Shown: positions 3,001 through 63,811, counted from the first letter of the stretch. The stretch is DNA of 64,000 nt from Amoebophrya sp. A120 (GCA_905178155.1 CAJINV010000002.1:4645709-4709708); one strand, 5' to 3'. Notes: a model not told the origin generated them from the sequence alone. Numbers and translations are program-made.

Positions 3001-6000
3001 TCAAGCCGGTGAGTCCGCCCCGGCCGACGCACTTTCCCCCGCCGGACTGTCCCCGCCACCTCCGTCCACTGCGGCCTTTGCGGCCTGCGCGCCGTCTTCG
3101 TCGTCTTCCAGTCCTTCCAACGGGTCGTTGAGCACCTCGAAGACACAGTCGTAGGAGGATAGGAATTGTGACTTCTGCGTGAACTGGAAGTGGAGACTTT
3201 TCCTCGCCTGGTCGTCCATTTGGTTGTATCGGACGTCGAGATACTCGAACTTGAACTCAGGCTCCTCCCCCCGTTTTCGGTTCCAATCGTCCAGAAATTG
3301 CCGCACGCACTTGATCGCGATCTTGTTGCTGTTGCAGTTTAAATGCAACAGTCGGCAGATGTGGTTGTCGCCCGTGATGAAGTCGAAAACCGGGACAATG
3401 CGGTTGCTCCCCATCTCGTTCCGCGCGACATCCAGAATCTGTAAGTGCGGGCAGGCCCGGAGGATGTACGGCAACGACTCCCCTCCCCCTAACCGGTTGC
3501 TCGCGAGATAGAGCTCCTCGATCGAGTTTCCCTCGGGGATCACCCCGTCGCTGATCGACACGATGTCGTTGTCGTCCAACCACAAGACGCGGCAGGTCTC
3601 GGGCAGGTATTCCAAGATGATCTCCGCGCCTTCGTTCCCGATCCCGCACCCCCACAGGCACAGTTCCTGGAGAATTTTGCCCCCCTTGTTCATGAACCCC
3701 TGCTGAATGGCCACCGCGCCCTCCAGCCCCAACGGCTTCTTGCTCAGGTTCAAGACCTTCGGGGTGCGGAACTTCAAATTGTTGGTCACTTCCTTGAACG
3801 CAAGCGCTTGCGCCTCGGGCATTTTCCCGTGCACGGAAGACAAATCCCCGTGCGACCGGGCGGTGGAGGGGGGCGCGGTGGTTGGACTGGTGTCCCCGCC
3901 AACCGAGGACGCCTGCTTCTTCCCGTGTTTTCTTCGCGGTGCGTTCGCGGCGGCCTCCTGCTTCGCCTCCTCGTACAGCAGAGAGCGCGGGCACTCCACG
4001 AACCGGCAACTCAGTTCCTCGATTCCGACGTTTAAATTCGGATCCAACCGGTACCGCATAATCTCCGGCAGACCGGCCAACACCGCGAGAAACTGCCCCT
4101 GGAGGAGATATTGCTCCTCCCCGCAAAGGTACTCCAACTCGTTCCTCCTCGCGGGGTACAAAGTGTTCAGAGCTCCCAGGTCAATCTTCGTTTCAAACAC
4201 CACCCGGAGGTTGGCCTCTGGGTCTAAATCCGGCAAGGCGTCTTCGTTGTTTAAATTCAGAAACGCGGCCCCGGAGTCGGACTCTTCCTCGTCTGATCTT
4301 TTCTCTTGGTTTGTTGTTCCCTGCTCCGCTTTCTGTTCTGAATTCGGTGCCTGTTGCTGTTGGTCTACTGAGGTTTTGTCTTTACTGTCCCCACCCGCGG
4401 TTGGATCCTGCTTCGGAGTGCCTTTGCTCTTGGAAGCGGATGCATTTTGATTTTCATCTTCCTTTTTCGTTCCGCCGGGCGTTGTTTTATTATTCGCGCC
4501 CCCCTTGTCCGGCGTTTGTTGTTGACTCGCGGTGGTCCCTCCTGCTTTTGACCCCCGTTTCTTGAGTTCCGGCGTTCCTGGCTTCTTGTCCTCGTCTTTG
4601 GATTTCCGTGTTAAAGACTTTTCGTTCTTTTCCCCGAGTTCCTCTTGCAGCCCTCCTTGCAGGGCTAAAACGATTTTTGTTTTCACCAAGTGTTCCTCCG
4701 CGGATTTGATCTCCAAGTTATTCACCACCACCCTCTGGATCCGCTGGTACGCGGTTTTCCGGCAACCCTTGTGGTCCGATATGCAAGAAAAAAACTGTGT
4801 AAGTTTAACTTTCTTGGAGGAACAGCATCACAAGTTTGCTCTGCATGACAGAGAAAACCTGTCATGCGTAGCTAGTATGTGAAAACACGTACGAAAAGTG
4901 CCTCTGTTGCATGTCCAGCATGACAGTTGTGACTGTCTTGCATCGTCTGCAACACAAAGTTACACTTACACAGTTTTTTTCTTGGATATCCGACGTGAAG
5001 AAGTCGCTGTGGATGTTCGACGGGACAAAGGACAAAAACATGCGGACAAAGGGGACGTTGTTATCCTGTGCAAAAGCATCACACTCGTAGTAATTGCAAT
5101 CATGCATTACAAATCTCTGTCTTAAGGCAAATCAGCATTACAAATTTCATTTTTCATGCTGAGGAAATTCAAATTTGTAATGCATTTATACGAGTACGAT
5201 ACTTTTGCACAGGATAGTTTTGCTTCTTCTGCAAATTGTAGCAGACTTCGGAGGTCCAGATGTTGAGAAAGTACTTCCGGCCCCAGATGGGGTCCCGACA
5301 CTCCTTGTCAAATGCAAAAATGTCTGGGTCTGGAAGATTTGAACTTGTCATGGTAAATCTAAATGATGCAAAAATCTGTGTTGCGTGAGTGCCAAAAGCT
5401 GGCCGCTTTTGACCAAGTTGAGAGGGAGCTTCTCATGCAGGAAAGGCATGGTAGAGACCTCAAAGAATCTGTCATGCTGGGTCTCGCATTCCAGACCTCA
5501 TGGGTCATGGAAAACCTGCATCACAAATCTTGCATTCTTCCAGACCCAGACATTTTTACATTTGATACTCCTTGTAATCGGACAAATGCTGCACGGGTTT
5601 GTCCACCAGCTCCGACATCTGCAGCAGTATCGGCAAAATGTGCGGCCGCAGCATCTCCATGTTGTCCAAAAACGCTTGTCGTATCGCCTCCTCCTGGATT
5701 TTCCGTAGCCGCTCCTCCTCCGCTTTCCTCGTGGATAACACAGCGGATTTCTTCTCCCGCTTCAACTTTTCCACCTGGGTAACGTCCAAACCATCCAGCT
5801 CGTTCTCGCTCATGGCCGGGGTCGTGACCCGGTCCACGGAATCGAGGTCGTCTTCGTCCTCCTCCTCGTCCTCCTCTTCTTGGATAGAGGGGGTGGGCGG
5901 GGGGGAAACCCCCTTGATGTGGATGTAGGAGTCCTTTTGGGTTTCCGGCAGCATCTGGTCGAAGTACGGGTTTTTTTGCTTCAGCCGCTCCTCGGGGGGG

Positions 6001-9000
6001 ATCATCCGCACATAGCAGTTTCCGAACTCGTCCACCAGCTCCACCCAGCCAGATTTTGCCGAATACCCGTGCTTCGCCTTCATCTTCACGATCAACACGT
6101 AAGCGTACCGCCCTTCCACATGTTGAATGATGATTTCGTCGTCGTGGAGCAAATTTCCAATCTTCGGCAGGGTCGCCGCGCCCTCCCACTCCTCCGGATC
6201 GTCCAAATAATTGGAATCTTTGTTCACAAAGTGCTCTGGGTTGTTATTGACATCCCACCGGAATTCCTGAAACCGCTTCACCTGCTCCAGTTTCCCGGTC
6301 TTCCTGTTCCTTTGCTGTTCCGTGTGTCTCAAACAAGACTTTCGGGTCGGGAACAGCTTCATCACGACCGTGAGTCTCGCCCGGAAATCGTTGTTCAAAA
6401 TGATATTCACTTCCTCATCCGAGACGTGGGACCCAAACGGGCACACGCGATACACCACCGCGGAGGGGTCGAGGGAATGGTCCGGATTCGCGTTCTGCGG
6501 AATTTCTCTTCCGTCTTTCATCATCATCAGCTGCGAAAGAGAATCCATCGGCTGGTCGTACGGATTGGGAATCGGCTGTATTTTTGGCTTCTCCTCCGTA
6601 TACAAATGGGCGTTCGACGCTGAACTGCCGCCGGCTTGCTCTTGTGGGACCCCCGGTGGGATGATGTTTGGTGGGAGCTGCTGCTCCTGCGCTGAGTTAC
6701 TACTATTTGGATCAACACGACCAGGACCACGAGACGAGGGGTCGTGCTCAGTTGTGGTCGTCCCCATTTCCACATCGCCTGTATCGTTTTCTTCTTTCGG
6801 TATCGGATTGCCGTCCTCGTCGTACTGTACCTCCTCGTCGTCCACAAAGTCTCCCGGGTGGTCCAGCATTTCGTCAATAATGGACGCGCGGAACATGCCT
6901 TGACTGCTCACCGCTAGCGGCTGGAAAAATCCGACGAAGGGGCAGTAGCCGTGCTGTGGAACCCAGTTTTCGTGCCGATCGTCGTCATCCTCAAACTCGT
7001 CCCTCAAAGAGTACAGCGGCGGACACAACACCCGGCACACGTCGTCCTGATTTTGCCGGTTTTTTCCGTCGTTTGCATTTGTTCCTGGGGGTAGCAGGTC
7101 CGAATTCTGCACCCATTCCACTAACAGCACGCACCCCTTCGTGAATCGGGAGCACGTATGGGATTCTCAACCGTTACATATACATTCTCGCCTGTCACAT
7201 AAATCCGTGATGCAGTAACAGCAAAAGTGAAAGGGGAAACCTTGCGCGTCTTGCATTACAGATCTGGGACGGATTCCTGTGCCATCTAGCGCATCGATAA
7301 GTTGTCATGCGAAGAAGGCTTGATCGTGTGAAAGAAGAGTGATAGCATAGTGATTTTGCATGACAAATCAGGCGACAGTGGAGAATGCAACGTTTGAGAA
7401 TCCCATAGCACGCTTTCTCCGGCTCGAAGGTGCCGTCCTCGAACACCTCCACATCGTTGGTCACAATGTGCAGCTTCCAACCGCTATCCATTGCAAAAGT
7501 ATCTATTCATATCACTGCAGCTTTCTATATCTGGATCAGCACGACAAATTTCACGTTTTTCTTCTGGAAAATTTGTCTTGCAAAAAGTTCTTCCGCAAGT
7601 ACGATACTTTTGCAATGCATAAGCCCCCGACGCCAGCAATTGCTGCATCGTCGCCCGCGTGTCGGTCCAGAGATTTTTCCAATAGGGTTTTTTCCCCGTC
7701 GCCGGTGTCACATCGAACGTCAGCTTCCAATCGCACAACTGCCGCCCGTGGTCCAAAATTTGCATTAACTCGGGTAATGTTTGGAACACCTGGTGTCGGT
7801 CATCGATCCCGCCCAACTCGTGGTAGGGCAGCTCCTCGATCGGCAAGGCCTTCATTCGGAATTTCAGGGCCGCCTTCCGGATTTTGTTCAGATACCCCTT
7901 GGCGAGGGACGACATGACGTTCGCGTCTTCTATCCGGTCCTTAGGGTACTGCAAATCGTACGTGGTCGACACGACTTCCGGATCCGATTCCCAGTAATCC
8001 CTTTTCATGTGCGCGGTTTCAAATTCTTCCTGCCAAAACCTCGCGTTCTCCTCTTCCACCTGCTTGACCGCTATGGCGTTCTCAAATGTTCTTACATTTT
8101 CAACTGTTACATAATTTGCCATGCAAAACCCTCATCAGCATCTAGATTTATCAACCTGCTTCGCATGACAAATTTCCGAAGGGCTAGACAGCATCTAAGT
8201 CTGTAGTACCAAACCTGTATTGCAAGACGCGCAAGGTCACCCCTTTCACTTTCGCCATTCTTGCATTACGAATTCATGTAACAGTTGAGAATGTAACATT
8301 TGAGAACGCCATAGCCGCGTCCTCCGCGTTCTGGATCTTCGCCTCCTGGAGCTTGTCCGCCCCGGATTGCCCGCCGACGCCGCGTCTGCCCTCCACTTTG
8401 TCCGCCATGTCGTCGGACTTTAATTTTTCTTCCTCTTCATTCAACGCGGATAGTTTGGCCATCTCCTCCTGCCGCCGTTGCTCCCACTTGTCGATTATGC
8501 ATTGCAAAAGCATCGTACTAGTATAAATTGCATAACAAATTTTTTCATAAGGAAAAATGGAATTTGTCATGCTGATTCACCTAAAAAAGGATGTTTGTCA
8601 TGCCTGATAGCAATTACTACAAGTACGATACTTTCGCACAGGATATCGATGCGCTTTTGCCTCGATTCCTCCAGATCCTTCCTCGCCAACTCCTCCAATT
8701 TCTGCACCCCGATCTTCCGCTCCTCGCCCCGTCCGGACTTCTATGAATTGCAAAAGTATCGTACTCGTACAAATGCATGACAAATTTTTCCCTCAGAATG
8801 AAAGCTAAAATTTGTAATGCGGATTTAGCAATGCATGATTGCAATTAATACGAGTACGATACTTTTGCACACGATAGCTTCAGCATCTGCTCGATGTTGT
8901 ACAGTTCTCGATCCTTGTTCGTGATGTGCAAGTGCGACCGGTGCTTCCCCTTCTCGTAGGGGAGGGACAGGGTTTTCAGCGTTTTCACGTCCTGAATGAT

Positions 9001-12000
9001 GAATTCCTGGTAGTGATCGTCCGTGACGAGCTCCGCAACCTTCTGCAACTCGTTCGGGGCCAGGCGCATGCGGTCGCCCCACCGGAGGACAAACCCGTCT
9101 TGGACGGTGGGAATCTGCTTCTCGATTTGCGTGGAGGTCGAGTGGGAGGAAACGCTGTTTTGAAGATACATAAGAAGAGCATAATTTTTAGGCTTTTCGT
9201 CATCTACCTCTACGTCACGTCAAACCTCCATTCCTATACCGAGCATTGGGCCCCCGTGCAACATAACAATGACACGCTGCCTAGTACGACTAGCAGCGAC
9301 TTTCAGTTTCAATCCACCGTGCATGGCGAATTAGGGTAATACTTAATATCCGATCCGTATCTACGTGAGTTAAGCCCACGCCCGCAAAAACTACTATCAG
9401 TAGCTTAATCAAAACAAAAACCTGCTTCCTTGTTTTTCCGCCCCCTCCTTGACTATCCGGTCTTGCTGCATCTGCTCCCGGAACAAGGGTTTTCCGTCCG
9501 GCAGCATCAGCGTGACCCAGCCCTCCTCGATCGGCATGCCCGGCAGTTTCGGCACCGTCGTGACCCGGGCGCGAATCCCGGCGACCACGGAAAAAAGAAC
9601 GAGATCCCCACCCCGTAGAAACGCGACGTCTTCTGATTCGATGTCCTGCTCCTCCTGGATCGGCAGCAACACCCGCTCCGGGAAATCCGCGAGGAAAACG
9701 ACGCCCGAAATAGCCGTCCCGCGTTCGTCCAACACCAGATTCTTCACCAGAGGTCGCTTATCCAACGAATACACCTTCGTGTACCCCACCGTGCAGTTCG
9801 CGGGGTCGCAGAGATCCATCAACTCCTTCTATCGTAAGGAAAAATCCCCCCTCCCCATATCGAAACGGTTTCTTTTGAAAATTTGTGATGCTGATCTGTG
9901 CCCGCAAATCAGGTCTGTCTTGCAAGAGAGCCAAGCCAGGGCTTCCGCCGCTTTCTTACGCGGGGGATTTGTAACGCCGCTGCGCAAACAGGGCAGACGT
10001 CTGCCATGCTGAGCGCCCACCTCTAGCCAGCTTCTTCCGGGCTTTGTATCTGCCTGCACCTGCAGTTCTCTACTGCAAGACAAAGCTGATTTGTATACAC
10101 ACATCCCGCATCACAGATTGCCATTTTTATATGGGGAGGGGTGATTTTTCCTTTCGATACCTTCGACGCGTACACATTCTCCTTCGTGGGGATTTGCGGC
10201 AGCAAGATTTTCGCCACCCCGGTCTCCGGATTCAGTTCCGTCAGCACGATAATTCTGCCCTGCTTCACCAAGCGGGTTGGCGTTACGTTCTCGTCCATGA
10301 CCGCCCCCTCCGGTGGGAGGCGACCCTCCCGCCTGGCCCGCCTCTCCGCGATCTCCCGCTTGTTCATGCGCTCCCCCGGGAGTTTCAGCGAGTAGTCGTC
10401 TGTCTTTTTGTTCCGGATGGGTTTGTCAAACACCTTATGCATTGCAAAAGTATTGCACTAGTTGTAGTTGTAGTTGTAGAAATTGCAATACAAAAATTCA
10501 TCTCCAGCGATTAGTAATGCTGACTCACCAAAAAAGAAAATTTTATGAAGATGCTGTACAACTGCAAGTGTAGTACGAACGCGATAGTATCGAACTTTTG
10601 CAGGGGATACACCTCCAATTGCCAGGACTCGTCCTTTGCGACCCCCTCGCTGGCCTCGCCGACGATGCCCAAGTGCCAGGTCTGGGAAATCAGCAAGTCC
10701 TCCAAACCCCCGTCGTGCAACACCTCCCGCAGATCCCAGGTCGCCCGGACCGCACTCCCCGGGTTCAAGTAGTAGGTCCGGTTCCAAATCACGTCTCGCG
10801 CCTCCCGCCAACCGCCGGTGACGGTTTCCCGCTGGATAATCACCATGTTGTTCGCGTGCACGGCGGTCTCGTATTGAAAATCGCTCTTGTACACACGCTG
10901 CTTCGGATCCTGCTCGTACTCGGGGATGTTCTGCCGCTCCAACTCGGCTTCCTTCTGCATTTCCATGATCTGCTTCCGCGTAAAGCCGCTGTACTTCGTT
11001 TGCTTCGCGATCATCTCCGCTTGCGACAGGTTCCGGTCCGCGTTCGCCGCGTCTTGCGCTTTTTTCTCGGCCGCGAGTTTCATGTCGATCTCGGATTTCA
11101 ACGCGGTTCGCGCCATGTCTTTCTTTGATTGTTCCACTTCGGACAAAGGCAAAATCTTCGAAAACAGGGCTTCGCCCGTCTCGAACAGAACGAGAGAGAC
11201 CCACCCGCCGCGAAAGAAATTATCCGCCTCGATGTCAATCACCGATAACTTCGCGACGCGCGCGTCGCCGAGATCCAGTTCCTCATCGTAGTCCGGGTTG
11301 TCCACTTCGGTATAAACGTGCGCGATCTGCGCTCGGGACCCCACGATTTGGAGGAAGGACAGCTGCGTGTTGGGCTGGAGCCGGCCGAGAACGCGGCTGT
11401 GGTGGAAATCCCGGGATTCCGTGACCAGCACGCACCCGTCTTCCGTGATCCCCGGCACGTCCTTCAGCTCCGCAAGGTAACTGTACTTGTTCGCACCTCT
11501 TTTTGGCTTTGCAGGTTTCACTCTCGCTGCAGAGGAAGCAGCTCCTCCAGCACCAGCGCCGGCTGCACCTCCAAAGTGCTTTTCCTGAAACACCTTGTTC
11601 CGTGCCTTCGCCGTCATGGTCACCGATCCCTGGTCATCGTCCTCGAACTCGGACAAGGACACCCTCCTGGCCGTCCCCAACTGCATCCGTTCTTTCGGAC
11701 TTGTCGGTGAGTCAAATTGGTCGGGAAATGCGATGTCCGCCAAGTCCTCCGGCTTCGGCTCCCAGCCGACCACCCGGCCCCACCGGGAACGCAACGCGTT
11801 CTCGTGCAGATCCTCCGTCGGGACGTAGTTCAGCATGCGGCCCATCCGCCCGATCCGGATCGGCGGGTCGTTCAGCGGGAGGCGGTCGACCGTGTGTAAA
11901 GAGAGTGAGCTCACGGCAGGTTTATTGTTTTCCTCTTCCTCTCCCTCGTTATTGTTCCTCCCGCCGCCTTTGCTCGTCGACTTGAACCGGACCCCTGGTC

Positions 12001-15000
12001 CGAGCTCCATGATCTGGGTCGACATCAGCTGTCCGGTTTCGGGTTCGGCAACCTTTCCCGTTTTCCACGGGTGGCTGAACTTCCACGCTTCGAGCACGGA
12101 GTTCATCATTTCCAGTTCCCGGAGGGAATACGTCACATCCGTCGAGGTCTTGTTGTCCTTCTGCAGCCGCTTCAGCCGCCTTTTTTCCGCGTTCGGGTCA
12201 CCGAACCCAACTTCGCCGGGCAACGGGATCAACTTCGCCCTCTTCCGGTTCCGCTCCTTGTCCCAAAACTCGCTACTCGCGTTGGCCCAGTCCTTCCGGT
12301 CCGGCGACTCCATTTGGCTGGTTAAAAACAGCGACTCGGTGCCCGACCCCCGCTTCTGGTTCCACTGCCCCTGCAGCGCCGCCTGGTCGCCGGAATCGAC
12401 GGCCCTTTCGGTCAGGATTTCTTCCAGAGAAAGCCCCTGCTCCCCGACCTGCGCGACCGTAGCGAGGTGGTGCGCTTTATCCTGAGTAAAAACGTCCCCG
12501 CCCCATAGTCAAGTTGCGAACTCTGCAACACAAATCCAGGAGTTTTGGAAGCCATGCATGACAAGTTCGTCTGTGGAGTGTGGTGAGCGTGAGTGTTAGC
12601 AAAGACAGTCGCATGACAAACCCATCTTCTCATCCTGTTTACAGCATTGGCATTGCAAATGGCAAAACACGACTGGAAATGCATCTCATGTAGATGCGCA
12701 TTACAAATGTTCCTGTCATTGCAAATCCGCATGACAACTCTGGGGTGGGGACGTTTTTGCTCAGGATACGCTTGCTCCAACCGCCGGAAGTCCATCCGCC
12801 GCCGGTTCGGGGACAGCGGGTCCACCTTGTTCGGGGGGCCCCGCCAGATGTTCATCTGCGACTCCTCCGTCAGGCCGTGGTGGTTCGGGTCCACCGGATC
12901 GTGGTAAATGTCCCGACGGGCTTCCAGTTCGTGGTAGGACCGCCGGTCCGGGGACTTGTTCAGCATCGGAAGCACCAACCGCTCCTTCTCCTCGCGCTTC
13001 GCCTTGATCGCCATCTGCATCTTGTCGAACCTGGAGGAGTTTATTTTTCAATATTTCTTTGTTTGTTTCATCTTCGCTCCTAATTGCCAATATTACCCTG
13101 GCATGCTGGTCGACGTGTTCTGTCCGGAGACTCAACAGTGAGATCCACGCAGCGTTGGAAGGCGCAACTGCTCTAAGCGAGTCGCTGCTATCAGCAAGCA
13201 GGCCAAGCGAATTTTAGAATAGTAGCACAGATTCGTATTTCTGTAGAGAGAGCCGCAGCTAGCTATGCGTATGCCGCCAGCTAGCGAAAGCGAATTTCAA
13301 CATTTGAAGGAGCCTTAGACTTTGTAGAAGATGAAGATTGTGAGAAGGTTTAAAGATGCTCTGCTTCACAGGACGATGTCGAAGCAAGCACGTTGCGAAC
13401 CTTCTATTTCACTTTTCTCCTGCTTGGAACCTTGGAAGGCACGGGAAAGCAAGCCTCCCAAGGAAAGTAATGAGGAGGTAGGTACTATGAGCTGCTCGAT
13501 TATTTTTTTGGTACGAATATGAAGATCCGTTTCCATCTACGCGAGAGCGTAGTTCGTGTTGTGAAGGAACAAGTGGAACTATTTTATCAGCTTGATCTTG
13601 ATGAAAATTAGTTAACTTCCAAACATCAGAATTCAGAATCAGATGGTGATAAAAAAAACGCAAATAAAAATCTGCACCATGTCAGCTGATTTTTGATCCG
13701 CCACTCCTCTTCCAGCCGCTCCCGCTCAAACCGCGCTGCCTCGTCCTTCGCCCGCTGCGTATCATGTGCAAAAATATCGCACTCGACTGGAAAAGCTCGC
13801 AATTTTGCATCACGAATGCAAATCTGGTTTCCAAGCAATTTCAGCACTTTTACAAATTGAAATTCCACTTTTCAAGGAAGAAGCAGAAAAAGTTTCAGTT
13901 TGCAAACGCAATTACTACCAGTACGATAGTTTTGCAATGCATACTGCGCCCTTCGCGCCAACTTTTCTTCCCTTCTCTTCTTCTTCGCGGCCTTTTCTGC
14001 CGCACGCTGTTGCCTCTTTTCCTTTCGCCGCTGCTTTTTCATCTCCTCTTTCTGCCGCTCCTTCTCCTCCAACTCGAGCCGTTCCCGTATTCTTTGTAAA
14101 CACGTCATCACACCTTCATTGTCATGCATATGTAAATCTGCATGCCAAGATCATCTCTACTCGCGCGGCTCACCATGAGGAGAGCCATTTTCTCATCCTA
14201 ATAGGATGAAAGTGAAACTTGATTTGTAGTGCGGCTCCTGGACTCTAGCTACACACGAATGTAGTTGCCCTGCAAAATATCCAAGCGCCTGGGTTTGCGT
14301 TTCTTTGTCGTCGAAACAGAGTTCGCATCACTTAAAAACTATGGGGTGGTGACGTAGTACTAGTTTTCACTGCGGATATTCCTTTCCTTGTAGTCACTGT
14401 CATCCGAGTCCACATCGGATTCCGTGCCTTGAGCAGCTTTCGCGAGCTCTTCCTGCTCCTCCTCGAGAAGATCTTCTTCATCGAAATCTTCCTCTTCGTC
14501 CGTAGAACTGGCATCCGGATCGAACTCCGACAATTCCGAAGACTCGTTCGCCTTTTCTTCCTCGAGTTTTCGCAGCCTTTCCTGCTCGAGCCGCTCCGCT
14601 TCCTGCTGTTGCCGCAGCTGCTCGGCGGCTTCCTCCACCTCCTGCTGCGTGTAGACGCCGGAGAAGGGAATGATGGGGCCCGTGAAGGACTTTGGCTGTT
14701 CTTGTTTTTTGTTCGTATAATTTGCGTTTGTTGCTTTTTGTCTGTTTGCACGATGACAGTTTTTGTTTTTCATGGTATTTCAGAAAAATAGGCACATTTA
14801 CATGCTGGAAGAAGAGCAATTCCTCTACTGTCAATCTTCTTCGAGATGAAGCCGTCATCAAACACAGTAGGAGGACGAAGAAGTAGTACTCTTTTCCCAA
14901 ACTATACTCACTTACCGGCCCTGGCCTGCAGACGTGCTCGTTTTCCACGACCTTCAAGAATTCTCCATCGGGCATTTGCACCAGCGAGAGCTCCCTCAAA

Positions 15001-18000
15001 ATTGTGCGCAACCGCCGCACCGCGTGATGCGTGTCGAATTCCTCATCGGACTTGCCAATGACGAGGATCCCCAGAGACGCCAATTCTCCGAGTTCGTTGT
15101 CGGTCGCGTACACCGGATTGTCAAACGCATCTATGAAGCCCGGAAACGTGTCCCCCCGGCCGTAAAACCCCAACTGCTTGATCTCGGAATTCTTATGAAG
15201 ATCGCGCCCGGAGGGCGATATTGGTAACCAAATGCGTGCGCGAAAATCTAACCAGCGCGAAAGCCAAACCAGCCGCCACCATTTCTTTTAATTAGAATCC
15301 CACTTCTTCTTCTTGGGTCGCGGGCTCCACCACTTCCCCGCGGCCCTAAAGGGCCACGGACAACTACTGTCGCCCGCGGCGGCCCGCAGGCTCCTGCGAT
15401 AAGCATTGAAGGCGAAATCCGGTCTGCTATTTCGCAGCGGGGCATCCTTTCTAGCCCCCTGCGTGACAAACTGGCCTCCTGGCCAAGAAGGTATGTGGCC
15501 ATCCACCTTCGCGACGGGGCATCCTTTCTAGCCCCCTGCATGACAAACTGGCCTCCTGGCCAAGAAGGTATGCGGAAAGCCGAATCTCCGCGGTCCCTTC
15601 CGGGCCACCAAAATCGGGCAATTCAGACGCGGCGGAGGTGCAGGATTTGTGCCCACAAACCAGGGCAAATGGGGGCTTTGTGACATCCCTCCGCCCGCTT
15701 CTAGTGCGTTTTTTTTTTTCACAATCCCGAAACTATGGCGCGACCACGCGCCCGCCGGACCGCCCTTGGTGGCCAGTTTGTAAGCCTGCCGAGGGTTCTC
15801 GACTTTCGCCCATTTCGCCTTTTTTTTCAAGTTTCTAGGTGGCCGAAGGGCTCTGGACATTTTCACCGCCCGCAGCTGACTGGCAGTCTTGGAGCCTGGA
15901 GGGGGACTGCGGTTTTGCGCAATTTTTCACTTTTTTCTGGTTTTGAAGTGGCCCGGGCGATCTGCACATTTTCCCCGCCCCCACCTGGGTGGCAGTTTTG
16001 AAGCCTGCGGAGGGATTGCGCTTTTGCAAGATTTTTCTTCTTTTCCCATTTTCCAAGTGGCCCGGGTGATCTGGACAAAATCCGACGATTGCTTCCACCC
16101 ACGTTATGAAGCAACTTTTTGCCATTTTTTTCCAATTTTTTCCAGTTACGAAGCGGCCCAAGGCTTCCGGACAGGTCGCGGGCCTGCTTCTCCAACGCAG
16201 CTGCCCAGCGGGCGAAGCAAAAAGTACTCCGTCTTTTTTTCAGATACTAAGTGGGCCAAGCCGCAAAAGTGCTCTTTTTCCACCTTCTCCCGCTTGGTTT
16301 CTGCCGTTTTTGCGACATTTTTGACCTCCTGGCCATTTTCCCATCTGATCCACTTTTTTTCCCTTCTCCCGCTTCATTTCTGGCCATTTCCCTGACCTTC
16401 ACGCCTCCCGGCGGTTGCCCTATATGGTAACGGCAACTGCCTTCGCGCTGCGTTTGCTAAGCAATATCGCAAGCGCGCAGAGCGCGCGCGCCGGCTTCGT
16501 GGGCCGGCGCGCGCTCTGCGCGCGCGCGCGCACGCATTTGGTTACCAGATCAGCATCTTCTTGCTGTGTTCCCGCAGCGCCTTTTTTGTTCACCACCTTC
16601 GCGCCCCGCGTGATCGTGCTCGGACGGGGTAGAGCCGTGCGGAAGCGGTTCCCCTGGGAATTTTCCAGGGCTTCTCGTGGGATGCTGGTGTTCAGTTCGG
16701 TCGGTAGGACCAAAAACGACCCCTCGTCGTTAAAATGGTGCTCGATTTCGTGCAGCTTATCTCCGTAGGCTTCTTCAAACTGGTACACCAGGACAAACGG
16801 CTCGTCGGTCGGTCGTTTTGTCCCCTTCAAAAAACACCGCACCGCGGCGGCGCCGAGTTTCCGTCTCCGCGTGTGGTGATTCGTCATCTGCAGCTTCGCA
16901 TAATTCTTCTTGTCCCTATGCACTGCAAAAGTAACACATTGAGTTTGAGTCGTATCGCACTATGAATTGCGTTGAAATTTGATCAAGTAAGATGAAAGAT
17001 CGCTCACAACGTGCGATTTCCAATGCCTTCTACATACTACGACCACAGTGCGACTTTTGCAAAGGATAGTCTCTTTCGGCCCGCGACTGGTACCAACCCC
17101 CGCGCCGAACCAAATTTTCCGACCGGTTTTGCGTGCACACGTAGTACCGGGCTTCGGGCTCCAAGTAGGCGACAACCTGTATTTGACGTTATTGTAGCGA
17201 ACATCAGAACTGTAGCACGCAACAGAAAAAGCAGCAGGCCGCCGGCTACTACAACCAAAAGAGCGGGACCAGTATGCGGACATATTACAACAGGCAACCT
17301 GTTTATTGCTGGACCACAAATAGATGAAGGTAGTACGTTGTAGGGGTCATTCGGGTCGATTTTATCGCCAACGCGATTCATCATAGAATCGATCCGTCGC
17401 ATCGAGCTCTCCGGGTCGATTCCAGCGTCGTCCATCATCGCCTCTCTCCTGTCGTTCCGAACCCCAATTATCGGCCGCAAGTAGCTCAATTCCGAGCCTT
17501 CCCCAATTTTCGCGTACACGAATTTCCGCGGGTTCAAGGGATTGACGATCTGGGCGATTTGGATGCCCTTTTTGCTGTCGAACTGGGTCCGAATCACGAC
17601 CAGCACGGATCCCTTCTCCACGATATCAAAATGAAAAATCCCCCCTCCCCATATTGAAGCGGAAACTTCTGCTGCTGGATTTGTGTACACAAATCAGCCC
17701 TGTCTTGCAGCGAGGCACTACAGGCAAAGCCTCAGCCTGCGTAGGGGTGTTTTGTTGTAGGCGCTTGGCATAAGAGAGGCCGGCCATGTAGGTGAAGCAG
17801 CATTACAAATCGCCTCCATAAGGCGGCGGATTCTTTGCGTTTGCCTTCTTGCAAGACAGATGTGATTTGTGACCTCAAATCCGCAACACAAATTTTTGGA
17901 AACATACCTTTTCGATATGGGGAGGGGAGATTTTTCCTCTCAATACACGAACCCGCAGGACTTGCCCGCACACTTGCTGTTGTCATACAGGTCCGTATCC

Positions 18001-51917: not shown

Positions 51918-52922
51918 CCGCAACGAGGACCCGCTGAGGGGGGGCTACAGCTACGCCGTGGTGCACGACAACGGACAGCTTCTTAGTCAGCTTCTGTTGA
52001 ACTGGCGGAATTCTCGAGGAGCGGTACAGGGCGGGAACTTCCTCAGATGTAGTTGCTGTGCTTATCATATCCTGTGTAAATGGTGCGTGCATTGAACAAT
52101 GCATTCCTGAAATATTTGTTTCATATTCACAAATAAATAGTATATCACACACGACACACTTCATCCGTTCTCATGAGCAGCGCGCTCTTCTGTCACTAAC
52201 CTAGAAGTATTTCGGTCTTACACGTTGACCTGCTCTATCTCGGTAAAACAGCTTACCTCGTCGACGGAGCGGCGCAACACCAAAAATCACGAAATGGAAA
52301 TTTTTCAATCTTTCAGTTTCTTGTGCGAGTATTAACATTCATTTTCATATTTATAGTGTTGTCAGCTGTAGGTACAGTTTTCAGTTTCCAGCTTCCCTTA
52401 CGGTTACCCCCGATGAAGATGAACGGGTTCAAAAAGCATTACTTGCGGCCAATCACTGCCGCGATCCGGATCCGGCTTGGTTGTGTATAAATATTTATAT
52501 GAAGCAGCACATTCGAGCAGCGTCTGGATCCCTTCCTTTTCACGCACGGCGACAGCCGATTATTTAGCGTTTGAGGGCCAAGACCCTTACTGCTTTGCCC
52601 GTAACTGCTCGGCCTGAAGCTTCACAAACTCGGCTGGCGGTACCCAATCGCAGTCAAACTCCTCCGGAGGTATCCGAGTGCACAACTCCCCCACCTCGTC
52701 CCCCTCATTTGAACAAGGGCACGAACAGCAATACAGGAAAGCCACCAAAAATGTAGCCTCGTCCGCATGAAAAATTTCTCTGGGGTATTTATAACGATTG
52801 GTGTGGTCATGCGAACAATGCAGCTTCAAGGCGGCAAGAACGGCAACGTGTGTTGTGGATTTCGAAGCTTTGACGTTCTTTTGCATCACATTCACAAATC
52901 ACAAAGCTAATGAAAAGGAGTA

Positions 52923-55900
52923 CTAGCAGTAGTTGTGCAATCTGATAGGAGGAGCTGGCAATGCAGGAGGAGACGCCGGGGATGCAGGAGGAGACACAAC
53001 CGGGGACGTCGAAGATGTAGCTCCTGCTTTCTTATCACCTTGTGTCTCTACGCCTTCGGCTTTTTCCGCCGTGGTTCCCTGTGCGAACTTTTCCGCGTCA
53101 AAGTGCGCACACGCCTGCTCTCCGAGAAACTCCCGAGGCTGCTTGAAGGGTCCGGGCGTGCCGCTGTCGCCCACCGGGGCCGCCAGGTCCAGGACCGGGT
53201 CCCGGAAGAACTCCATGCGGTGGGCGTCCAGTGCCTCGGTGAGCGGCACGCCCATGCCCCAGAATTCGTCCGCGCGGGACAGAAACCATATCAAATGCAA
53301 AAATGTCTGGGTCTGGAAGATTAAAACTTGTCATGCTAAATCCGAATAATGCAAAAATCTGTGTTGCATGAGTGCCAAAAGCTGTCAACTTTCGACCAAG
53401 TTGGGAGGAAGTTTCTCGCGCGGGATAGGCATGGCAGAGACCTCACAGACTCTGTCATGCTAGGTCCTGCATTCCAGACCTCATGGGTCATGCAAAATAT
53501 GCATGCCAAACCTGGCAACGTTCCAGACTCAGATGACATTTTTGCATTTGATAAACCAAGCCCAGGCGCGACCGGAAACAGCAAACACCGTGCGGCGGAC
53601 GCGCGTCTTCTTGCTCAGAAGCTGGAGAGAAGGATCTTCCGAAGATTCATCACTCGCGCTCGGCCCTTCTTGTGGCGATGGGTTCTTCTTGCTTCTTTTT
53701 GCCGCTCGGGTGCTGCTATCACTTCGCGCACAACTCCCGTCGTCCCGCTTGTTCCCCTTTATTTCTCCAGAAGTACTGGAGGTAGAAGTAGTCCTTGAGT
53801 TAGATGCTTCGGTGGCCTGTTCTCCCAATTCCGGTGCAGATTGTGACCTCCTTGTAAAAAAGAAAGAAGACGATGAGGACGACGGGGTTGCAGCGGTGCT
53901 CGACGCTGGCGCTGCTCCGGGCGGAGCGGTGCTTTTCCTTTCCTGCTTCCGGAGGAGCCGTTTTGTCTCATACGCCGACTTCATTTTCGTTTGGCGGATC
54001 CAAAACACTTTTTCCAGCACGGGCACAACCATTTTTGCGTCCGTGAAACTCAAAAACGCCAGCCGCGGCACGGGGTCCTGGTTGTAGAAGACATTCATAG
54101 TGTTATCAACTGTAAAAATGTCTGGGTCTGGAAGATTGCAACTTGTCATGCTAAATCCGCAGCATGCAAAAATCTGTGTTGCATGATTACCAAAAGTCGT
54201 CCAGTTTTTACCAAGTCTGGAAGTAGTTTCTCATGCAGGATAGGCATTAGAAAGGTCTCGCAGAATCTGCCATGCTAGGTCCTGCATTCCAGACCTCATG
54301 GGTCATGGAAAAGCAGCATGACAAATCGCGTATTCTTCCAGACCAAGACATTTTTGCATTTGATAAGTGTTGGCCATCAACAATTTCTCGGTGTCATCGT
54401 ACTTATCTTGGCCTCCCAAAAATGTAACCGGCGTGCCCGACGGAACTTTTCCGGTGAGCAAATATTCCTGGGCGGGGACCGCCCGATTGCCCTCGGATGA
54501 GTAGATCGGCGGCGCGGAAAACACGATGGTGCGGAACTCTTTGTAGTTCCGAGATGGAAGATCATGCGCTTGTTGCCGCGCACCACGAAGAGATGAAGTA
54601 GATGCAGCACCCGCTCCGGAAGTAGTAGATTGTTCGTACTTTCCGCGGATCAGAAATTTCATCAGCGCCGAGTCGTACCGCAGGCGGTGCAGCACCAGCG
54701 CTTGCGCGCCGCCCAAGCTGTGTCCGGAGACGAGGATGGTTTTGAAGTTTTGCCGCAAGCGTTGCTCCAAGTAAGTTTCAAACTGCTTCCCGAGCTGCCG
54801 GTTTTTGTCGAAAACGTTCCGTGCCAGTTCTTGGAGGTTGTTTGGGTAGAAATGCTGCAGGTTTGCCGGGATGTCCTCGCGATTCGTTTTGATCTGCAAC
54901 TTGGCGGCGAAAATCGACGCGTGGTAGGTTTTTTGTTGGTCATCGAGAAGTTGTGTTTTTTCCTCGTTGTCACCGCAGTGTTCTACTTGCAGTTCTTTCT
55001 GACACTCCTCCCGCAACTTCAGTTCCAGTTCTGCCAATGCCAGGACCACGCGGTCGAAGAACCCCTTGTGCAGTTTCAAGTAGCTCGCCCCGGCGGAGGT
55101 GAAAGATCCGACCACAGTCTTCCAATAGTTTTGCTGCCCCGTCTCGGGATTTTGGGCTTCGGAAAACGAGGTCGTCGCGTCGCTGTACCAGTGGTAGACC
55201 GGACTGTAGTCGTCTCCCGCCGCGTCCACGTTGGTCGCCCAGTCGTCCAGGTAGGCGGTTTTTCCGTCCATCAGCCGGGTCCCGGTGCCGCGAAAGGTCA
55301 GGTTCAAGGTACCCCCGTCCGTGTCGTGCGAGAGGTAGCAGAACCACTGGGGCAGCATCTTTTGGTTGATGTTTTCGTTCTCCGAACCGTCCTCGGACAC
55401 ACCGGCGAGCGCGGGGAGAAAAGGAAGGGTCTTGGGGGCCAGATGGCTGGAAATTTCGTTGGACACATACGCCAAAACTTCCCTGCGCACCGCATCGTTG
55501 TTCAGAACTACATGGTTCACCTGATGTGAATTTTCATTTGTGAACAAGCTGTCTTTTAGTTCTTTTCCGTTTGCATATGCATACGTAAGTACATATTGAT
55601 ATTTATATGTTTTCCTCTTGTACATAGCGTTGCAAAAAAAACAAAATTCCCTTCCTGCTATCGATTCTAGTTTCACTAGTTGAGTTGTACCTCGTCCGGG
55701 TCGACGTAGTCATTTCCCAGATTTCCCAGCTGCCTTCTGAGTCTTTCAGGCGCATTCCGAGCTAGCTTTCGGAGCCACCGCCCAACTTTGAAGTTGTTTT
55801 CTACCAGTTTTTTGAGCACAAGCTGCGAAAGCTTCTCCAGCATGGCCTCCAAGCTTGTGACGTAGCGGTGCTGGGAAATCTTCTTTTCGCCGAAGAGGAT

Positions 55901-56839
55901 CAAATTTTTTTCGGGAAAAACAGTGGATTTGGATCTGTCATCCGTCCACGCGGAGCCAAAAAACCACCAACCATCCTGCTGCAGATTCTCAAACTCCTTT
56001 TCCAACTTAGCTTTTGACTCCCGGATTTCTTTTGACGTCTTGGTTCCGTCCGCGAGCGACTCAGTCCTGGAAGCCGCAAGTCGGGATAAAAAACCTGAGC
56101 CACGAGCACGACTTTTCCCTTCCAGCAAGATATCCTCCATGACTGTCCCACGGAAAAAGTGTTACAGTTCCACATTTGTTTGTCAATTCAGCAACACAAA
56201 TTTTCTCTGCATGAGAGGGGAAACGTGCAATGCGGAAGCATTTCTGGCATGACAGAGGTTGTCTGTCATGCTGAGCTTGCAAAGCAATGTGTAACTGTAA
56301 CACGTTTTTCTCGTGATAACAACGTACTCGTGCTCGTACGACAATCGGGAATTCTTCCAGGCCTGCCGAAACTCCCGGCGCTTCTTCAGCGAACTGTGAA
56401 TCGGCTGGTGGAGGACGTGTGCGACCGTGACTTCCTCAGCCCGCCGTTCCGCGTCAGCCGCGGCTACCAGTTCCGGGTTCGTTTGTGCATCTGGCTCCGA
56501 ACGACCTGCAGGTGGTGGAGGAGAAGCTAGAACTCCTGCAGCGGCTCCGGCTGCTGCGTCCGCGTCACTCAATAAAGCAGGGCGGCTTGTTTCTAGACCT
56601 GGAGGTTGCCGCGCAGCAGCAGCTGCTGGGCTCTTTGGAGTTGTTGCTGCTCTACTTGGTGCAGCTGCTCCTGCAGAGGTTGTCGTCGCAGTTGTACTAC
56701 TAGTAACCGCCGGCAAAGCCTGACATGATGTTTCAGGATCCGTGTAGGGGCGAAAGAAATGCTCCTCTCCCTGGTTCCACCCAGTAGCCTGGGTCCAAGC
56801 GGTGTTTACCTCGCGACAGAAATCGCAAACGCCAGACAT
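52923..56839 (-). CDS. Class-3 (fungal-type) lipase-domain protein; three introners and one canonical intron (~55521-55690)
   Basis: LTFRGT, DDWATN, LHKGF, nucleophile ILVSGHSLGGAQA, FSAPP, and after introner removal NVFYNQDPVPRL; 3' end approximate. Confidence 0.85.
53289..53553. mobile_element. TIR introner, family B (in lipase)
   Basis: Ends tatcaaatgcaaaaatgtc / gacatttttgcatttgata; repeat aacca; removal gives WAWF-LSRA. Confidence 0.92.
54104..54365. mobile_element. TIR introner, family B (in lipase)
   Basis: Ends tatcaactgtaaaaatgtctgggtctggaaga / tcttccagaccaagacatttttgcatttgata; repeat agtgt; removal gives MANT-MNVFYNQD. Confidence 0.92.
56144..56318. mobile_element. TIR introner, family G (in lipase; inverted relative to 59699 copy)
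   Basis: Ends tgtcccacggaaaaagtgttacagtt / aactgtaacacgtttttctcgtgata; flanks atgac/acaac; removal keeps frame (EYV..EDILL). Confidence 0.85.
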
Positions 56840-59026: not shown

Positions 59027-60502
59027 TTATGAGAGGATCGTCGACGGATCGGGTTCCAGAAAGTAGGTGAGCGGTTGCTTGCCCGAGGGGTCGCTGGAGG
59101 TGAGCACCGAGAGCCGAATCTCCATCTCCGCACCTTGCTCATGGTGGTCAGGATCGCCCGCCGGAGACAGCACGTTTTGGTTGTGAAACAGCAAGGTCCT
59201 CCCGTCTCGGTCCGTCCCCAGGTCCCACTGCTCCGGAGCGGCCGCGTCGAGCTCCCCGGGTGCGTACTTGCAAACCGTCCGCCGCACGTAAAATCGGACC
59301 TTTCCGGTCCGCCGGCAACGGTATGGCACCCCTTCGAAGTATCCCGTGTAAAAACGTTCGCACACCATATTTGTCATGCAAATCTGCATGCTTAAAATGT
59401 TTCTCATGCGGAGCCCCATGAGAAGCATTTTCTAATGGTGTTTTGAAATCTGTCATGCTCCAATCAGCATGAGAGACTCGATCTGTAATGCTGCTGAACT
59501 AGCTCAAACAGCACTACGCTACGCGTCCAAATTTGTCATGCGAAACAGCCAAAGCTTGTGGATTTGTCTAGCCGATTCCCCATCTTGACTATGGGGTGGG
59601 TACGTTTTTACATAGGATACGAAGTCCGTACCCTTCACTGGGTCCGAAACGAACTCCACCAGCCCGTTCGGCTGCTCCACTGGCAGGTCGGGGGTCGCTA
59701 TCATGTGAGAGAAAAGAAAAAGTCACAGTTACTGTTACACATTGCTTTGCAACCTCAACATGACAGACAAGAACCTCTGTCATGCCAGAAATGCTTCCGA
59801 CCTTCATGTCATAAGTAAGTGTTTTCCCTTATGGTCTGCGCATTGCAAGTTATTTTCTCTCCCATTCAGAGAAAATTTGTGTTGCTGAATTGACAACAAA
59901 TGTGTAACTGTAAACACTTTTATTTTCGTGGGATAGTCGCTGAACAGAGCTCTTTGATCGACTTGCCTGTAGCGTCTCCCTCAATTTTGTACAGCTTCTT
60001 CCACTTCTCCTGGTACGCCAGCACCTTGCCGCGTTCCACCGCCGAGAGGACGCATCCGTACTTGTGCATCCAGGCGGTGGACTTCATGAGGTCCCCCAGG
60101 AATTGTGCCTGCGCCTGCTCCACTGACATCGACCACTGCCCGCTCTCCTATGGAAGCGTCAGGTTTGAAATCGTCAAAGTTGAAATAATTTCAATTTGTA
60201 ATGCATAAAATGCGATACAAAAAGTGACTCTATTGCAGAGGACCCACGGGAGGCAGATTTTAGTCCTGGTAAGGGTCAAAAGTTGGACTGCCAACTAGCA
60301 TGACAGAAGGCAGCTCCTTTGCCCTAAACCGCATGACAGACTCGCTTCCGTGACCGGGAAAATTTGTCATGCACCGACTACAAACTGTAAGTCTAACTGG
60401 TATCCGTTTTATGCATGACAAAGTATTTCAACTTTGACGATTTCAAACCTGACACATCCATATCTCCTCCGCATTGTGGATGCTTTTCCCCCCCTTGCCC
60501 AT
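59027..60502 (-). CDS. Hypothetical protein split by three introners; 3' end may lie in a further exon near 58650-58840
   Basis: In-frame reconstruction MGKGGKSIHNAEE-SGQWSMSVEQAQ...ELCSA-TPDLP...KGTDF-EGVPYRCRRTGKVRFY. Confidence 0.7.
59340..59619. mobile_element. TIR introner, family E (inverted relative to 48668 copy)
   Basis: Ends tatcccgtgtaaaaacgttcgcacaccata / tatggggtgggtacgtttttacataggata; repeat cgaag. Confidence 0.92.
59699..59935. mobile_element. TIR introner, family G
   Basis: Ends tatcatgtgagag...gttacacatt / aatgtgtaactgtaaac...cgtgggata; repeat gtcgc. Confidence 0.9.
60149..60462. mobile_element. TIR introner, family F
   Basis: TIR core gtcaggtttgaaatcgtcaaagttgaaata / tatttcaactttgacgatttcaaacctgac; TAT..ATA ends; repeat tctcc. 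Confidence 0.93.
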
Positions 60503-61629: not shown

Positions 61630-63811
61630 TTATGGAGGTACTAGTTCTTCCGGCTTCCAGCACAGTTTCGCGACTGGCTTCTCGTCGTGCAGGGTCGTGA
61701 GGTCAACCTCGAAAGGCACGGACGTCTTCCACTTTTCGTTGCTTGGTTTCTAGTATGCATTGCTAAAGTATCGTAGTCATACTAAAACTAATCGTCAACA
61801 TCGCAAGAAGCATGCACAACTTTATAAATTCTTTTTCTCGAGGTTGTAAACCCGCAGTACAAATTTCGTTTCTCATGCTGAGCTAGCAAATGCGACGTCA
61901 TGCAGTTTTTGAATGTACTAGTGGGCACGATACTTTTGCACTGGATAGCCAGTCCTTCGAGAAATCAAGGGCCTTCCAGGCCCCGGTTGGCTTCGTGGGG
62001 TCGGCCGGTGTATTCGGGTCGTACAGTCCCAAGTTGGAATATAAGAGTGCACAACTCCCCCTCGCGACCTAATGCAAAATCCCAAATCCAGTTGGTGCCT
62101 TGTGGCTCTGTTTGCTACTTCAGCTTATTTTACTTTTTGTTTATTATTTTACAAACTCGTCCAGAAGCCGTGCAAGTTTGGAGTTCTAGACTCGGCGCCT
62201 GAACTTGTCATGCACAGTGTCCTCCACGTGCACGTGTGTTGGGCTTGTGATAGACATCCTATACAAGTGAGGGGGACCAAGGAAACGAGTTTTGCACTCT
62301 CATATGTTGAACATGGTAGTGGAGTGCGTCACCATGAACACGATCTTTCCCTCAAGTTGGGTCATGTCGAAGGCCCCCTGTTGCTGCGTAAAATGCTCCC
62401 CGGCGAGCGCCTTGCGGAGCATGCGCCAGCTGCGCTTTTGCAGCTCCAAGAACTTCACGCCAACTTTTTTGTTGTCGTTGTCGTCACTGGGCCAGGTTTT
62501 TGCGTTATCGCACGAAAAAGCTGCCGCAGTCTCAACTTGTAGTAATGCAGCGGACACTCGTCTTTCCTGAGCCACTGAATATTTTTTGTCATCATGCTCA
62601 GCGTGCGAGAAAGCCACAGGGGCCTCTCCGTTCACATGTCTGTCTTTATGTTTCTCTCGCTGGTTGAAGCCTCACAGGAGCGATTTGGTGTGTTATGATA
62701 TGATGATTTGCGCTGATGCTGCGTCTGCAAGGCTAGGCTAAGGCTTGAGACTGAGACAGTTTTATTCTTTCATATTTGTCTTCGGCCCCGTAGAACCAGC
62801 TGTGCTGCGAATCATCCGCGTTTTGCAGGAAGAAGATGTTGTCACTCGGGTATGCAATACAAATCATCGGCCATACACGTAGGCTCTTGTTGTAGTACAA
62901 AACGGCGCAATGCTAAGTTTGTAATGTTCATCTTCATGCCGAAATAAAAAAATGACGCTTATATATGAAAATCAAAATTTTTCATGCCGAACTGCATGTT
63001 GGTTGCAAAAGAATTCTTTCATGCTCAGCTACTAGCATTAGCCATCGCTTGTACTACTGCCGTGTACAGCGGTTATTTTTTCGTTTCCTGTGAATACGAA
63101 AGGATTCCCGTCTATGTCTTTCCACGAGGACGTCAACGGCCACTTGTCCGTTTCTGTGCCGTACTCGGATTTGGGAAGCTTGGTCGGATCCCAGCCCGGC
63201 GTGCCCGTCTCGCGAATTTCCGGAGTGAGGATGATCTTCTCTCGTCCAGCGTAGTCGGCTTCCGTGCCGTACTTGCCCGAGCTCACGAGCCCCTGGATGA
63301 AAAAGCTGGCCGTTTCCATGGCCCGGCGCATCGGGGAGACGAGGAACACGATATCCTTGCGGTCGTTGTCACTCAGTAGCTCCGGGTACACTTCGGCGAA
63401 TTTCGCTCCACCGTCTTTAGCCTCCGTTTGCCCGTCCCGTCCCTCGCCCTTCTTCGTGAGCGGGGGATCGGTTTGGTCGCCCCACTTTGGCAACTTCGCG
63501 TTGGCCGTCGACTCCGCGTGCCGCATGACAAACAGCTTCTTCGGGCCGACGGAGGTAGGAAGAACCTTCATCGGCGTCGGCGGCTTGATGGTGCTGCCCT
63601 TTGCTCCTGCTCCTCCCCCCTCGCCACAGACGCCCACGCACCAAAAACTGTGTGCAGCGACGAAACGATCCGCTGGAGAGAACGCGGTGAAGGTCAGCAC
63701 CAGGTGCGCGGCCAACATCTTCAAGCCGCGACGAGTAGAAGAGGGCGAGCAACGAGAAACTCCAGAGGTCGAAGAGGATGAAAGCGACAACATTTTGCTG
63801 GACGTGGTCAA
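61630..63811 (-). CDS. Histidine phosphatase (phosphoglycerate-mutase superfamily), probably secreted; multi-exon
   Basis: LFVMRHAES, DPPLT..G, LVSPMRRAMETA, PEIRE, and downstream IVFMVTHS; hydrophobic leader; splicing between ~62640 and ~63070 not resolved. Confidence 0.82.
61754..61947. mobile_element. TIR introner, family A (diverged)
   Basis: Ends tatgcattgctaaagtatcgt / acgatacttttgcactggata; flanks tctag/gccag; removal gives SKDW-(Q/K)PSNEKW. Confidence 0.85.
62040..62304. mobile_element. TIR introner, singleton family H
   Basis: TIR tataagagtgcacaactc / gagttttgcactctcata; flanks diverged; removal with 5 bp keeps frame (TMFN..LGLYDP). Confidence 0.8.

Follow-up and report, generated by a model that had tools for sequence, protein, structure and literature searches.

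Thirty-seven introners with TAT and ATA ends and five-base direct repeats in a 64-kb window of Amoebophrya sp. A120, likely removed at the RNA level without GT-AG boundaries

Introduction

About 65% of the introns of Amoebophrya sp. A120 are described as non-canonical, with the mechanism of their removal left as an open question (Farhat et al. 2021, PMC7789003); the same paper gives RNA support for such introns and describes introners without an internal transposase, whose arms read TAT, seven loose bases and at least three A, and whose flanking direct repeats measure 3-5 nt (5 bp in the legend of its Fig. S19). We analysed a 64,000-nucleotide stretch of the A120 genome (CAJINV010000002.1:4645709-4709708, hereafter the window, with positions counted from its first letter), in which 37 hairpin-ended elements interrupt about eight gene models, all on the minus strand. 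These elements are the already published A120 introners, with no difference in kind: strain, TAT arms, families and non-canonical removal are shared, and the link to Amoebophrya introners drawn in the original prediction, a model's reading of the sequence alone, was thus correct (PMC7789003, PMC12130899). They differ from the published description in a repeat of exactly 5 bp and in arms longer than the 8-20 nt given there (PMC7789003).

Several other systems are close in one respect or another. The Ginger2/TDD transposons (Bao et al. 2010, PMC2836005) likewise have terminal inverted repeats, and TDD-4 and TDD-5 make 5-bp duplications; Ginger ends read TGTNR and its duplications are mostly of 4 bp, whereas here 72 of the 74 ends are TAT and the 5-bp length fits TDD alone. 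Ginger also encodes a Gypsy-integrase-like DDE protein, of which Pfam found none in the long elements tested, although none is to be expected in non-autonomous copies. Euglenid nonconventional introns (Nomura et al. 2025, PMC12501133; PMC11282704) share the lack of GT-AG, a stem joining the ends, repeats at the borders, unequal spacers and a probable origin from miniature inverted-repeat transposable elements (MITEs), but their signature N3CDG / CH'GN5-6|R is absent here, circular products have been shown for them, and they belong to an unrelated lineage (PMC12501133). The MITE-like introners of Micromonas and Aureococcus leave one copy of the duplication after splicing, as here, yet they carry or co-opt GT/GC and AG, which 35 of our 37 elements cannot do (PMC11282704). 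Neither do these 35 have the ends of U2 or U12 spliceosomal introns (GT/GC-AG, AT-AC). Ciliate internal eliminated sequences are transposon-derived and are precisely removed from DNA at TA repeats in coding sequence; here, in contrast, DNA contigs retain the inserts, and the repeat has five bases of no fixed sequence.

Census of the elements

The elements, which lie between 4780 and 62304, were collected by an unbiased inverted-repeat scan, an end-anchored scan and inspection; the unbiased scan, with no assumption on the ends, returned 73 pairs, and most of the strong short ones start with TAT and stop with ATA. Sizes run from 135 to 452 bp for 36 elements, with one of 1143 bp. On the plus strand 35 begin with TAT and two (5306 and 56144) with TGT, and all 37 end with ATA. 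The flanking direct repeat, taken at length 5, is perfect in 25, matches at four of five positions in six, at three in five, and at two in a single degenerate element of uncertain register (62040-62304); its mean identity is 0.90 at length 5 versus 0.20-0.34 at lengths 2-4 and 6-10. An automatic count based on ends, perfect repeat and arm pairing gave 24 for the window; 100 local shuffles averaged 0.12 and never exceeded 3. The elements thus have the traits of MITEs, namely inverted termini, a duplication of fixed length and no coding capacity. Families A (12 members), E (5), B (4) and C, D, F and G (3 each) leave four singletons; three assignments (10436 to A, 14088 to E, 16917 to A) were made from terminal sequence alone. 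Two further inserts (15222-16547 and about 56840-57290) do not fit and are excluded from every count. Junctions fall in coding frames for 36 of the 37, compared with a frame cover of 68.5%, an excess that is partly circular. No Rfam family matched anywhere in the window.

The original prediction had listed 35 elements in seven genes with two singletons, figures that we revise as above; its family sizes, its TAT (twice TGT) and ATA ends, its 5-bp repeat with a minority of mismatches, and hence its transposon-type footprint of terminal inverted repeats plus target-site duplication, are all borne out.

For comparison we assembled a second set by matching a 21-base family A pattern to metagenome contigs, which gave at least 141 loci (L001-L141, 557 kb); the 80 listed loci all come from one assembly, and none of the loci retrieved overlaps the window. 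It holds 392 distinct elements, located without using the repeat, with perfect repeats in 253, 4/5 in 76, 3/5 in 16 and 2/5 or fewer in 47; these last were dropped as probably mis-registered, leaving 345, of which 208 have a confident coding frame over the junction made by deleting the element plus five bases (element+5). The window families recur there (27 of 38 queries match copies in these loci), and the copies are old: the median best-match identity is 86%, with 95% or more in 4 of 343 and none at 99%.

Removal at the RNA level

The strongest case is a UBA1-like gene for a ubiquitin-activating enzyme (43230..50031, minus strand; Pfam ThiF and UBA_E1_SCCH), which carries nine elements and four GT-AG introns. 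Its first exon is 100% identical over 265 residues to the A120 protein P0001, the A25 ortholog being 57% identical, and the elements do lie in the A120 genome. Deleting the nine elements, each with one repeat copy, together with the four GT-AG introns gives P0001 exactly (1300 of 1300 residues), and record 1 of X3, an RNA-type contig, aligns to the gene in pieces whose eight listed offsets all equal those of the model. X3 also lacks the four GT-AG introns and has zero depth in the intergenic bin 50261-50911. Stop codons occur in all three reading frames of each of the nine elements, so these must be removed, and eight of the nine junctions show no gap within four columns in an alignment of nine proteins. 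The claim that deletion of an element plus one repeat copy restores the frame is thereby upheld, and X3, from which the nine UBA1 elements are absent, showed neither their retention nor the use of nearby GT/GC-AG sites.

DNA-type X5 contigs (intergenic depth 20-30), on the other hand, cross at least four elements unbroken (45967, 52671, 61754 and 62040), with a depth over the elements equal to that of their flanks. Since P0001 and X3 match the element-free model while X5 contigs retain the elements, removal is from RNA and not, in ciliate fashion, from DNA; the nine elements are likely removed at the RNA level at a net length of element+5, as seen in three blocks. The original prediction had named both RNA and DNA as options; the answer is largely RNA. 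Precise DNA removal in a somatic or stage-specific genome, to which the symmetric ends and transposon-type footprint would be suited, we regard as very improbable, given the X5 contigs (although contigs drop rare forms), the occurrence of the same families within coding frames in a second DNA assembly, and the fact that the element-free contig is also without GT-AG introns.

Jumping of reverse transcriptase at hairpins between direct repeats is a known artefact of complementary DNA (cDNA), and in principle the skipped junctions could have arisen in this way, with the elements remaining in the messenger RNA (mRNA). Stable hairpins and direct repeats are what such jumps need, and all of the RNA data are cDNA-based; nonetheless we find this scarcely credible, because nine stop-bearing elements interrupt a conserved gene whose residues are collinear with its orthologs, and because the join at 56144, whose repeat is 3/5, appears no less clean than those at perfect repeats, even if the artefact may still bias junction positions.

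The evidence for RNA removal comes from contig offsets for the nine UBA1 elements and from frame, ortholog or piece ends alone for the other 28. In host gene 1 the three of eight junctions that are covered by the transcript-derived protein P0036 are all collinear with it, and P0037 aligns in one frame through 9830 and 10436; for other elements the element+5 deletion joins the upstream and downstream open frames, which is weaker evidence. No A120 gene models were found for genes 1-3, and the raw-read runs X7 and X8 gave 12 reads, none over a junction. One apparent exception, a need for element+4 at 16917, was rejected, as an adjacent GT-AG intron explains the frame.

Boundaries, orientation and position of the cut

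Sliding the junction across the repeat produces no GT-AG or GC-AG pair in 35 of the 37 elements and no AT-AC pair in any; a GT-AG slide is possible at 9830 and 10436, two cases where 3.7 are expected by chance. The original prediction reported no such pair where it had slid the junction, which holds for the 35 elements and not for these two, a number within chance; the six slides that it gave for 4780 were reproduced exactly. Those two elements are what favours conventional GT/GC-AG splicing, at sites close to the ends that are hidden or created by editing, and we think this most unlikely, seeing that chance alone would supply more, that none of the nine UBA1 elements has a slide though the contig fixes their net lengths, and that editing is reported at 2-4% of boundaries (PMC7789003).

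All seven multi-copy families occur in both orientations although every host gene is on the minus strand, and this includes families A and E inside the RNA-supported UBA1 gene; in the second set family A is split 28 to 22. This makes it unlikely that the element contains a splice signal that works in one direction only, and the signal would be symmetric or structural.

Mismatched repeats can show which copy is kept. At 56144 the X3 piece stops at 56138, and repeat positions 3-4 come from the upstream copy (ambiguous letters go to the right-hand piece in this alignment, as checked at the GT-AG intron 55521-55690); at 61754 retention of the downstream copy would create a stop; and at 5062 the relative P0036 has the upstream-copy residue. 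These three cases suggest that the copy retained in the mRNA is the upstream one. The 5' cut would then lie either directly at TAT or a single base ahead of it, and the 3' cut 4-5 bases beyond ATA. Among nine canonical introns examined here the donors were four GTAT, three GTAC, one GTGA and one GTAC read one base off, so that N-TAT resembles the local GTAT/GTAC donors apart from its first base. We did not count two published patterns that fit a cut one base before TAT, since an aligner preference would explain them equally well, CT..AC being over-represented: all nine A120 sites called 'predominant' in Table S4 of PMC7789003 start with N-T, and fam1 has an excess of NT/AN (PMC12130899).

Arms, folds and an internal motif

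Pooled over both arms, the element ends read TAT, C or G, four loose bases, G, one loose base and AAAA, with TGT replacing TAT at two of the 74 ends and A at arm positions 11, 12 and 13 in 54, 60 and 68 of them; this is the A120 motif described in PMC7789003. Pairing between the arms is 0.95-1.0 at positions 1-3, drops to 0.43-0.73 at 4-7 and returns to 0.81-1.0 at 9-17, a profile much like that of the second assembly. In the two fully resolved genes TAT/ATA deviates at 1 of 102 positions, compared with 6 mismatches in 85 repeat positions (p 0.048). Low drift at arm positions 9-14 (1.6%) was discounted, as the search pattern itself selected those positions. Predicted folds pair both ends in 35 of 36 elements, with a median z of -7.0 (one long element was not folded); inverted repeats yield such pairing on DNA grounds alone. 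Sense strands fold better in 24 of 36 (p 0.016), which we rejected as evidence in view of the null wobble test (see Discussion) and because transcription-linked mutation gives the same sign.

Within the elements we noticed a motif, TGTNWTGC, mostly preceded by an A-rich run and TT. It has 108 matches in 33 of the 37 elements (9.6 kb) against 16-17 in the other 54 kb (13.7 in shuffles), and 703 matches in 204 of the 208 second-set elements against 14 in 31.6 kb of flanks. Motifs tend to be paired: the window has 28 pairs 30-36 bp apart compared with 9.0 +/- 2.7 in 5000 permutations, six families and one singleton have same-strand pairs spaced by 31-33 bp, and in the second set same-strand spacings of 31, 32 and 33 bp are found 87, 30 and 24 times. 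There is no strand bias (373 versus 330 in the second set). The core drifts at 3.4% (88/2562) versus 13% for the rest of the interior (1868/14422), as counted in five families, two others having too few copies; the repeat mismatch rate is 6.3%. As core drift is about equal to post-insertion decay, the motif looks selected for mobility and not for splicing, and its pairs are likely candidate binding sites of a transposase; transposases binding subterminal MITE motifs are on record (PMC1636448). A role as a branch site found no support, given the lack of strand bias and a drift like that of neutral repeat sites. The two-way orientation, the motif, its 31-33-bp spacing and the hint of a kept copy were not found in the published descriptions searched.

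Search for a transposase

The long element at 32191..33333 (minus strand; 1143 bp, repeat 5/5) has nearly perfect 38-bp arms, no Pfam match and an internal repeat of its own, with 11 copies there and 2 elsewhere; its length equals one listed for fam103 in PMC12130899, a match of length alone. Its exact arm had no match in metagenome contigs, nor the exact family A arm in viral contigs. No autonomous partner with the same ends was found in the 64-kb window or the 557 kb of the second set. The second set does contain two candidate deletion products of an autonomous element, both with perfect 5-bp repeats and without a convincing Pfam match: an 815-bp element with family D arms (L022:6184-6998) and a 1104-bp member of a window-like family (L006:505-1608). 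PMC12130899 places near Ginger an A120 family whose members measure about 810 bp and have integrase-like frames, and lists it with '5-bp TSD, TA/TA termini' (TSD, target-site duplication).

A single machinery for all families, as proposed in the original prediction, is partly supported: the shared ends and 5-base stagger and the motif in 33 of the 37 speak for it, the long element without the motif and the missing transposase against it; nothing suggests that the enzyme inserting the DNA also removes the RNA.

Host genes and neighbouring features

All host genes and elements listed here are on the minus strand. Host gene 1 (3001..9170), which encodes a leucine-rich-repeat (LRR)-containing protein, has eight elements and no canonical introns, and after removal forms a single frame of 1545 codons with 63% identity to P0036. 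Its elements are 4780..4988 (family C, repeat 5/5) and 5306..5567 (B, TGT end, 5/5), both collinear with P0036; 5062..5216 (A, 4/5), the case of the upstream-copy residue; 7157..7407 (D, 5/5) and 8072..8313 (D, 4/5) in opposite orientations; and three more of family A, at 7485..7621 (3/5), 8496..8645 (5/5) and 8742..8876 (4/5).

Next come 9830..10159 (F, 5/5) and 10436..10609 (A by termini, 5/5), each with one GT-AG slide, then 12478..12768 (E, 5/5), 13760..13943 (A, 5/5) and 14088..14378 (E by termini, 3/5, with weak arms). At 16917..17068 (A by termini, 4/5) the frame fits given a GT-AG intron near 17177-17336; it is followed by 17624..17945 (F, 5/5) and by 17996..18142, a singleton of three 32-bp motif units (3/5). 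Further along are 38225..38676 (G, 4/5) and 39744..39898 (A, 5/5). In this part of the window, at 15222-16547, one of the excluded inserts, 1326 bp long and GC-rich, interrupts a coding frame; it has perfect 21-bp arms starting with TGG and an internal tandem copy, lacks both a clear 5-bp repeat and a Pfam match, and its net removal would be 1336 bases or a frame-equivalent length. We class it as a second kind of non-canonical insert.

The nine UBA1 elements, all in agreement with the X3 offsets and P0001, are 43588..43737 (A), 44076..44310 (D), 44420..44744 (G), 44792..45073 (E), 45967..46119 (A, intact in a DNA-type contig), 46320..46653 (F), 48091..48246 (A, opposite to 43588 and 45967), 48668..48945 (E, opposite to 44792) and 48980..49230 (B, 34 bases from its neighbouring element); the repeat is 5/5 in each except 46320, where it is 4/5 with a silent difference. 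A lipase-like gene holds 52671..52947 (singleton, 5/5), 53289..53553 and 54104..54365 (both B, 5/5) and 56144..56318 (C, TGT end, 3/5), at the last of which the X3 piece ends at 56138. The other excluded insert, at about 56840-57290 in the same gene, has short TATGCAT arms and low X3 depth; element+5 does not obviously restore the frame, and it is perhaps degenerate or compound. The remaining elements are 59340..59619 (E, 5/5), 59699..59935 (C, 5/5), 60149..60462 (G, 5/5), 61754..61947 (A, 3/5, with a stop if the downstream copy is kept) and the degenerate singleton 62040..62304 (2/5, register uncertain).

Some features lie outside the elements. A perfect 73-bp palindrome between genes (50627-50699) has arms like the family A terminus and no 5-bp repeat, and is possibly a collapsed element or a member of one of the 'palindromic' families in the table of PMC12130899. 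A direct repeat of about 40 bases (50905-50940 and 51880-51915) surrounds a GC-rich kilobase with raised X5 depth, perhaps a mobile element. An abundant polyadenylated X8 transcript, 99% like the window, covers 60861-61607 and ends at the template-switch adapter; its longest same-strand frame has about 130 codons. The regions 20350-27400 and 35676-37350 hold genes without elements, some of which we take, from their sequence, to be ribosomal-protein-like and cold-shock-like, along with a major facilitator superfamily (MFS) transporter and a phosphatase; this fits the reported scarcity in translation genes. Short tandem arrays occur at 1-140 (units of about 30 bp) and 24190-24700 (units of about 200 bp).

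Discussion

We favour, with moderate confidence, a reading in which these A120 introners are placed in trans by a cut-and-paste transposase or integrase and removed from pre-mRNA by a modified spliceosome that reads the terminal stem. The footprint makes it very probable that insertion is due to a DDE enzyme that makes cuts staggered by 5 bases at the TAT ends. This enzyme would bind to the two-part arm (TAT, then a loose spacer and G-N-AAAA) and to the motif pairs, whose spacing of 31-33 bp corresponds to about three turns of the helix. Removal would occur in RNA at a net element+5, independently of orientation, as families A and E in UBA1 suggest. On balance the agent is probably a major spliceosome modified to act without U1, its register being set by the terminal stem and not by GT and AG, and a 3' cut 4-5 bases beyond the stem would keep the upstream repeat copy in the mRNA. 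For A120, U2, U4, U5 and U6 small nuclear RNAs and a nearly complete major spliceosome are reported, with U1 undetected (PMC7789003).

The same origin and the same RNA-level removal could be combined with a route outside the spliceosome, in which an endonuclease and a ligase recognise the stem and its 3' overhang. Such a route is suspected for euglenid nonconventional introns, which are released in circular form. For the introners we hold it to be rather unlikely, although the lack of a conserved first or last dinucleotide, the irrelevance of orientation and the undetected U1 would all be accommodated by it, and euglenid introns offer a precedent in their paired core, unequal spacers and circular products (PMC12501133, PMC11282704); set against these are the absence of the euglenid signature (8 of 74 ends have G at position 6), the reported major spliceosome acting on GT-AG introns of the same genes and the likeness of N-TAT to local donors, none of which is decisive.

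Several results weigh against the reading that we favour. No branch site was identified, and the role of the spliceosome is something we infer. The X3 offsets check three block sums (of three, two and four elements) and not individual junctions, X3 is one contig set whose RNA type was guessed, and P0001 is a gene model. G-U versus A-C mismatches in the arms show no sense-strand bias (31 versus 20 in the window, p 0.16; 102 versus 95 in the second set, p 0.67), so that selection on the RNA stem is not demonstrated. Nor do the 66 repeat mismatches of the second set show a copy preference at any position (they include no stops), and 33 of the 66 are synonymous, at or above the 34-45% expected were one copy free (p 0.005-0.24 by assumption); this null result leaves room for a variable cut that slides along the repeat, such as the Fig. 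3 legend of PMC7789003 depicts. The base that would open the intron shows no preference for G (11 of 37 in the window, 59 of 208 in the second set). As to insertion, the 1143-bp element lacks the TGTNWTGC motif, Pfam found no transposase in two sets, of 14 and 10, of frames from long elements, and PMC7789003 found none in A120 and hence rejected general mobilisation by a transposase.

A bolder version, tentative and on present evidence doubtful, is that all TAT introners stem from one integrase-type transposon lineage and carry two codes: a binding code read in DNA (the TAT end, the G-N-AAAA core and TGTNWTGC pairs three helical turns apart) and a hairpin read in RNA by structure-measuring splicing, with no sequence demand at either cut and the upstream 5-bp copy always kept. 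If so, any copy, in either orientation and at any coding site, would be a clean intron on landing.

The window sharpens the picture of a known system, by its element+5 cut, indifference to orientation, near-invariant TAT, twelve mismatched repeats and internal motif. The twelve elements with mismatched repeats can locate the cut, and TGTNWTGC could serve as bait in a hunt for the missing transposase. If stem geometry alone sets splicing, this would account for the tolerance of coding sequence towards tens of thousands of insertions, and an alveolate would have a splicing rule that requires neither GT nor AG, a parallel to euglenids and tunicates.

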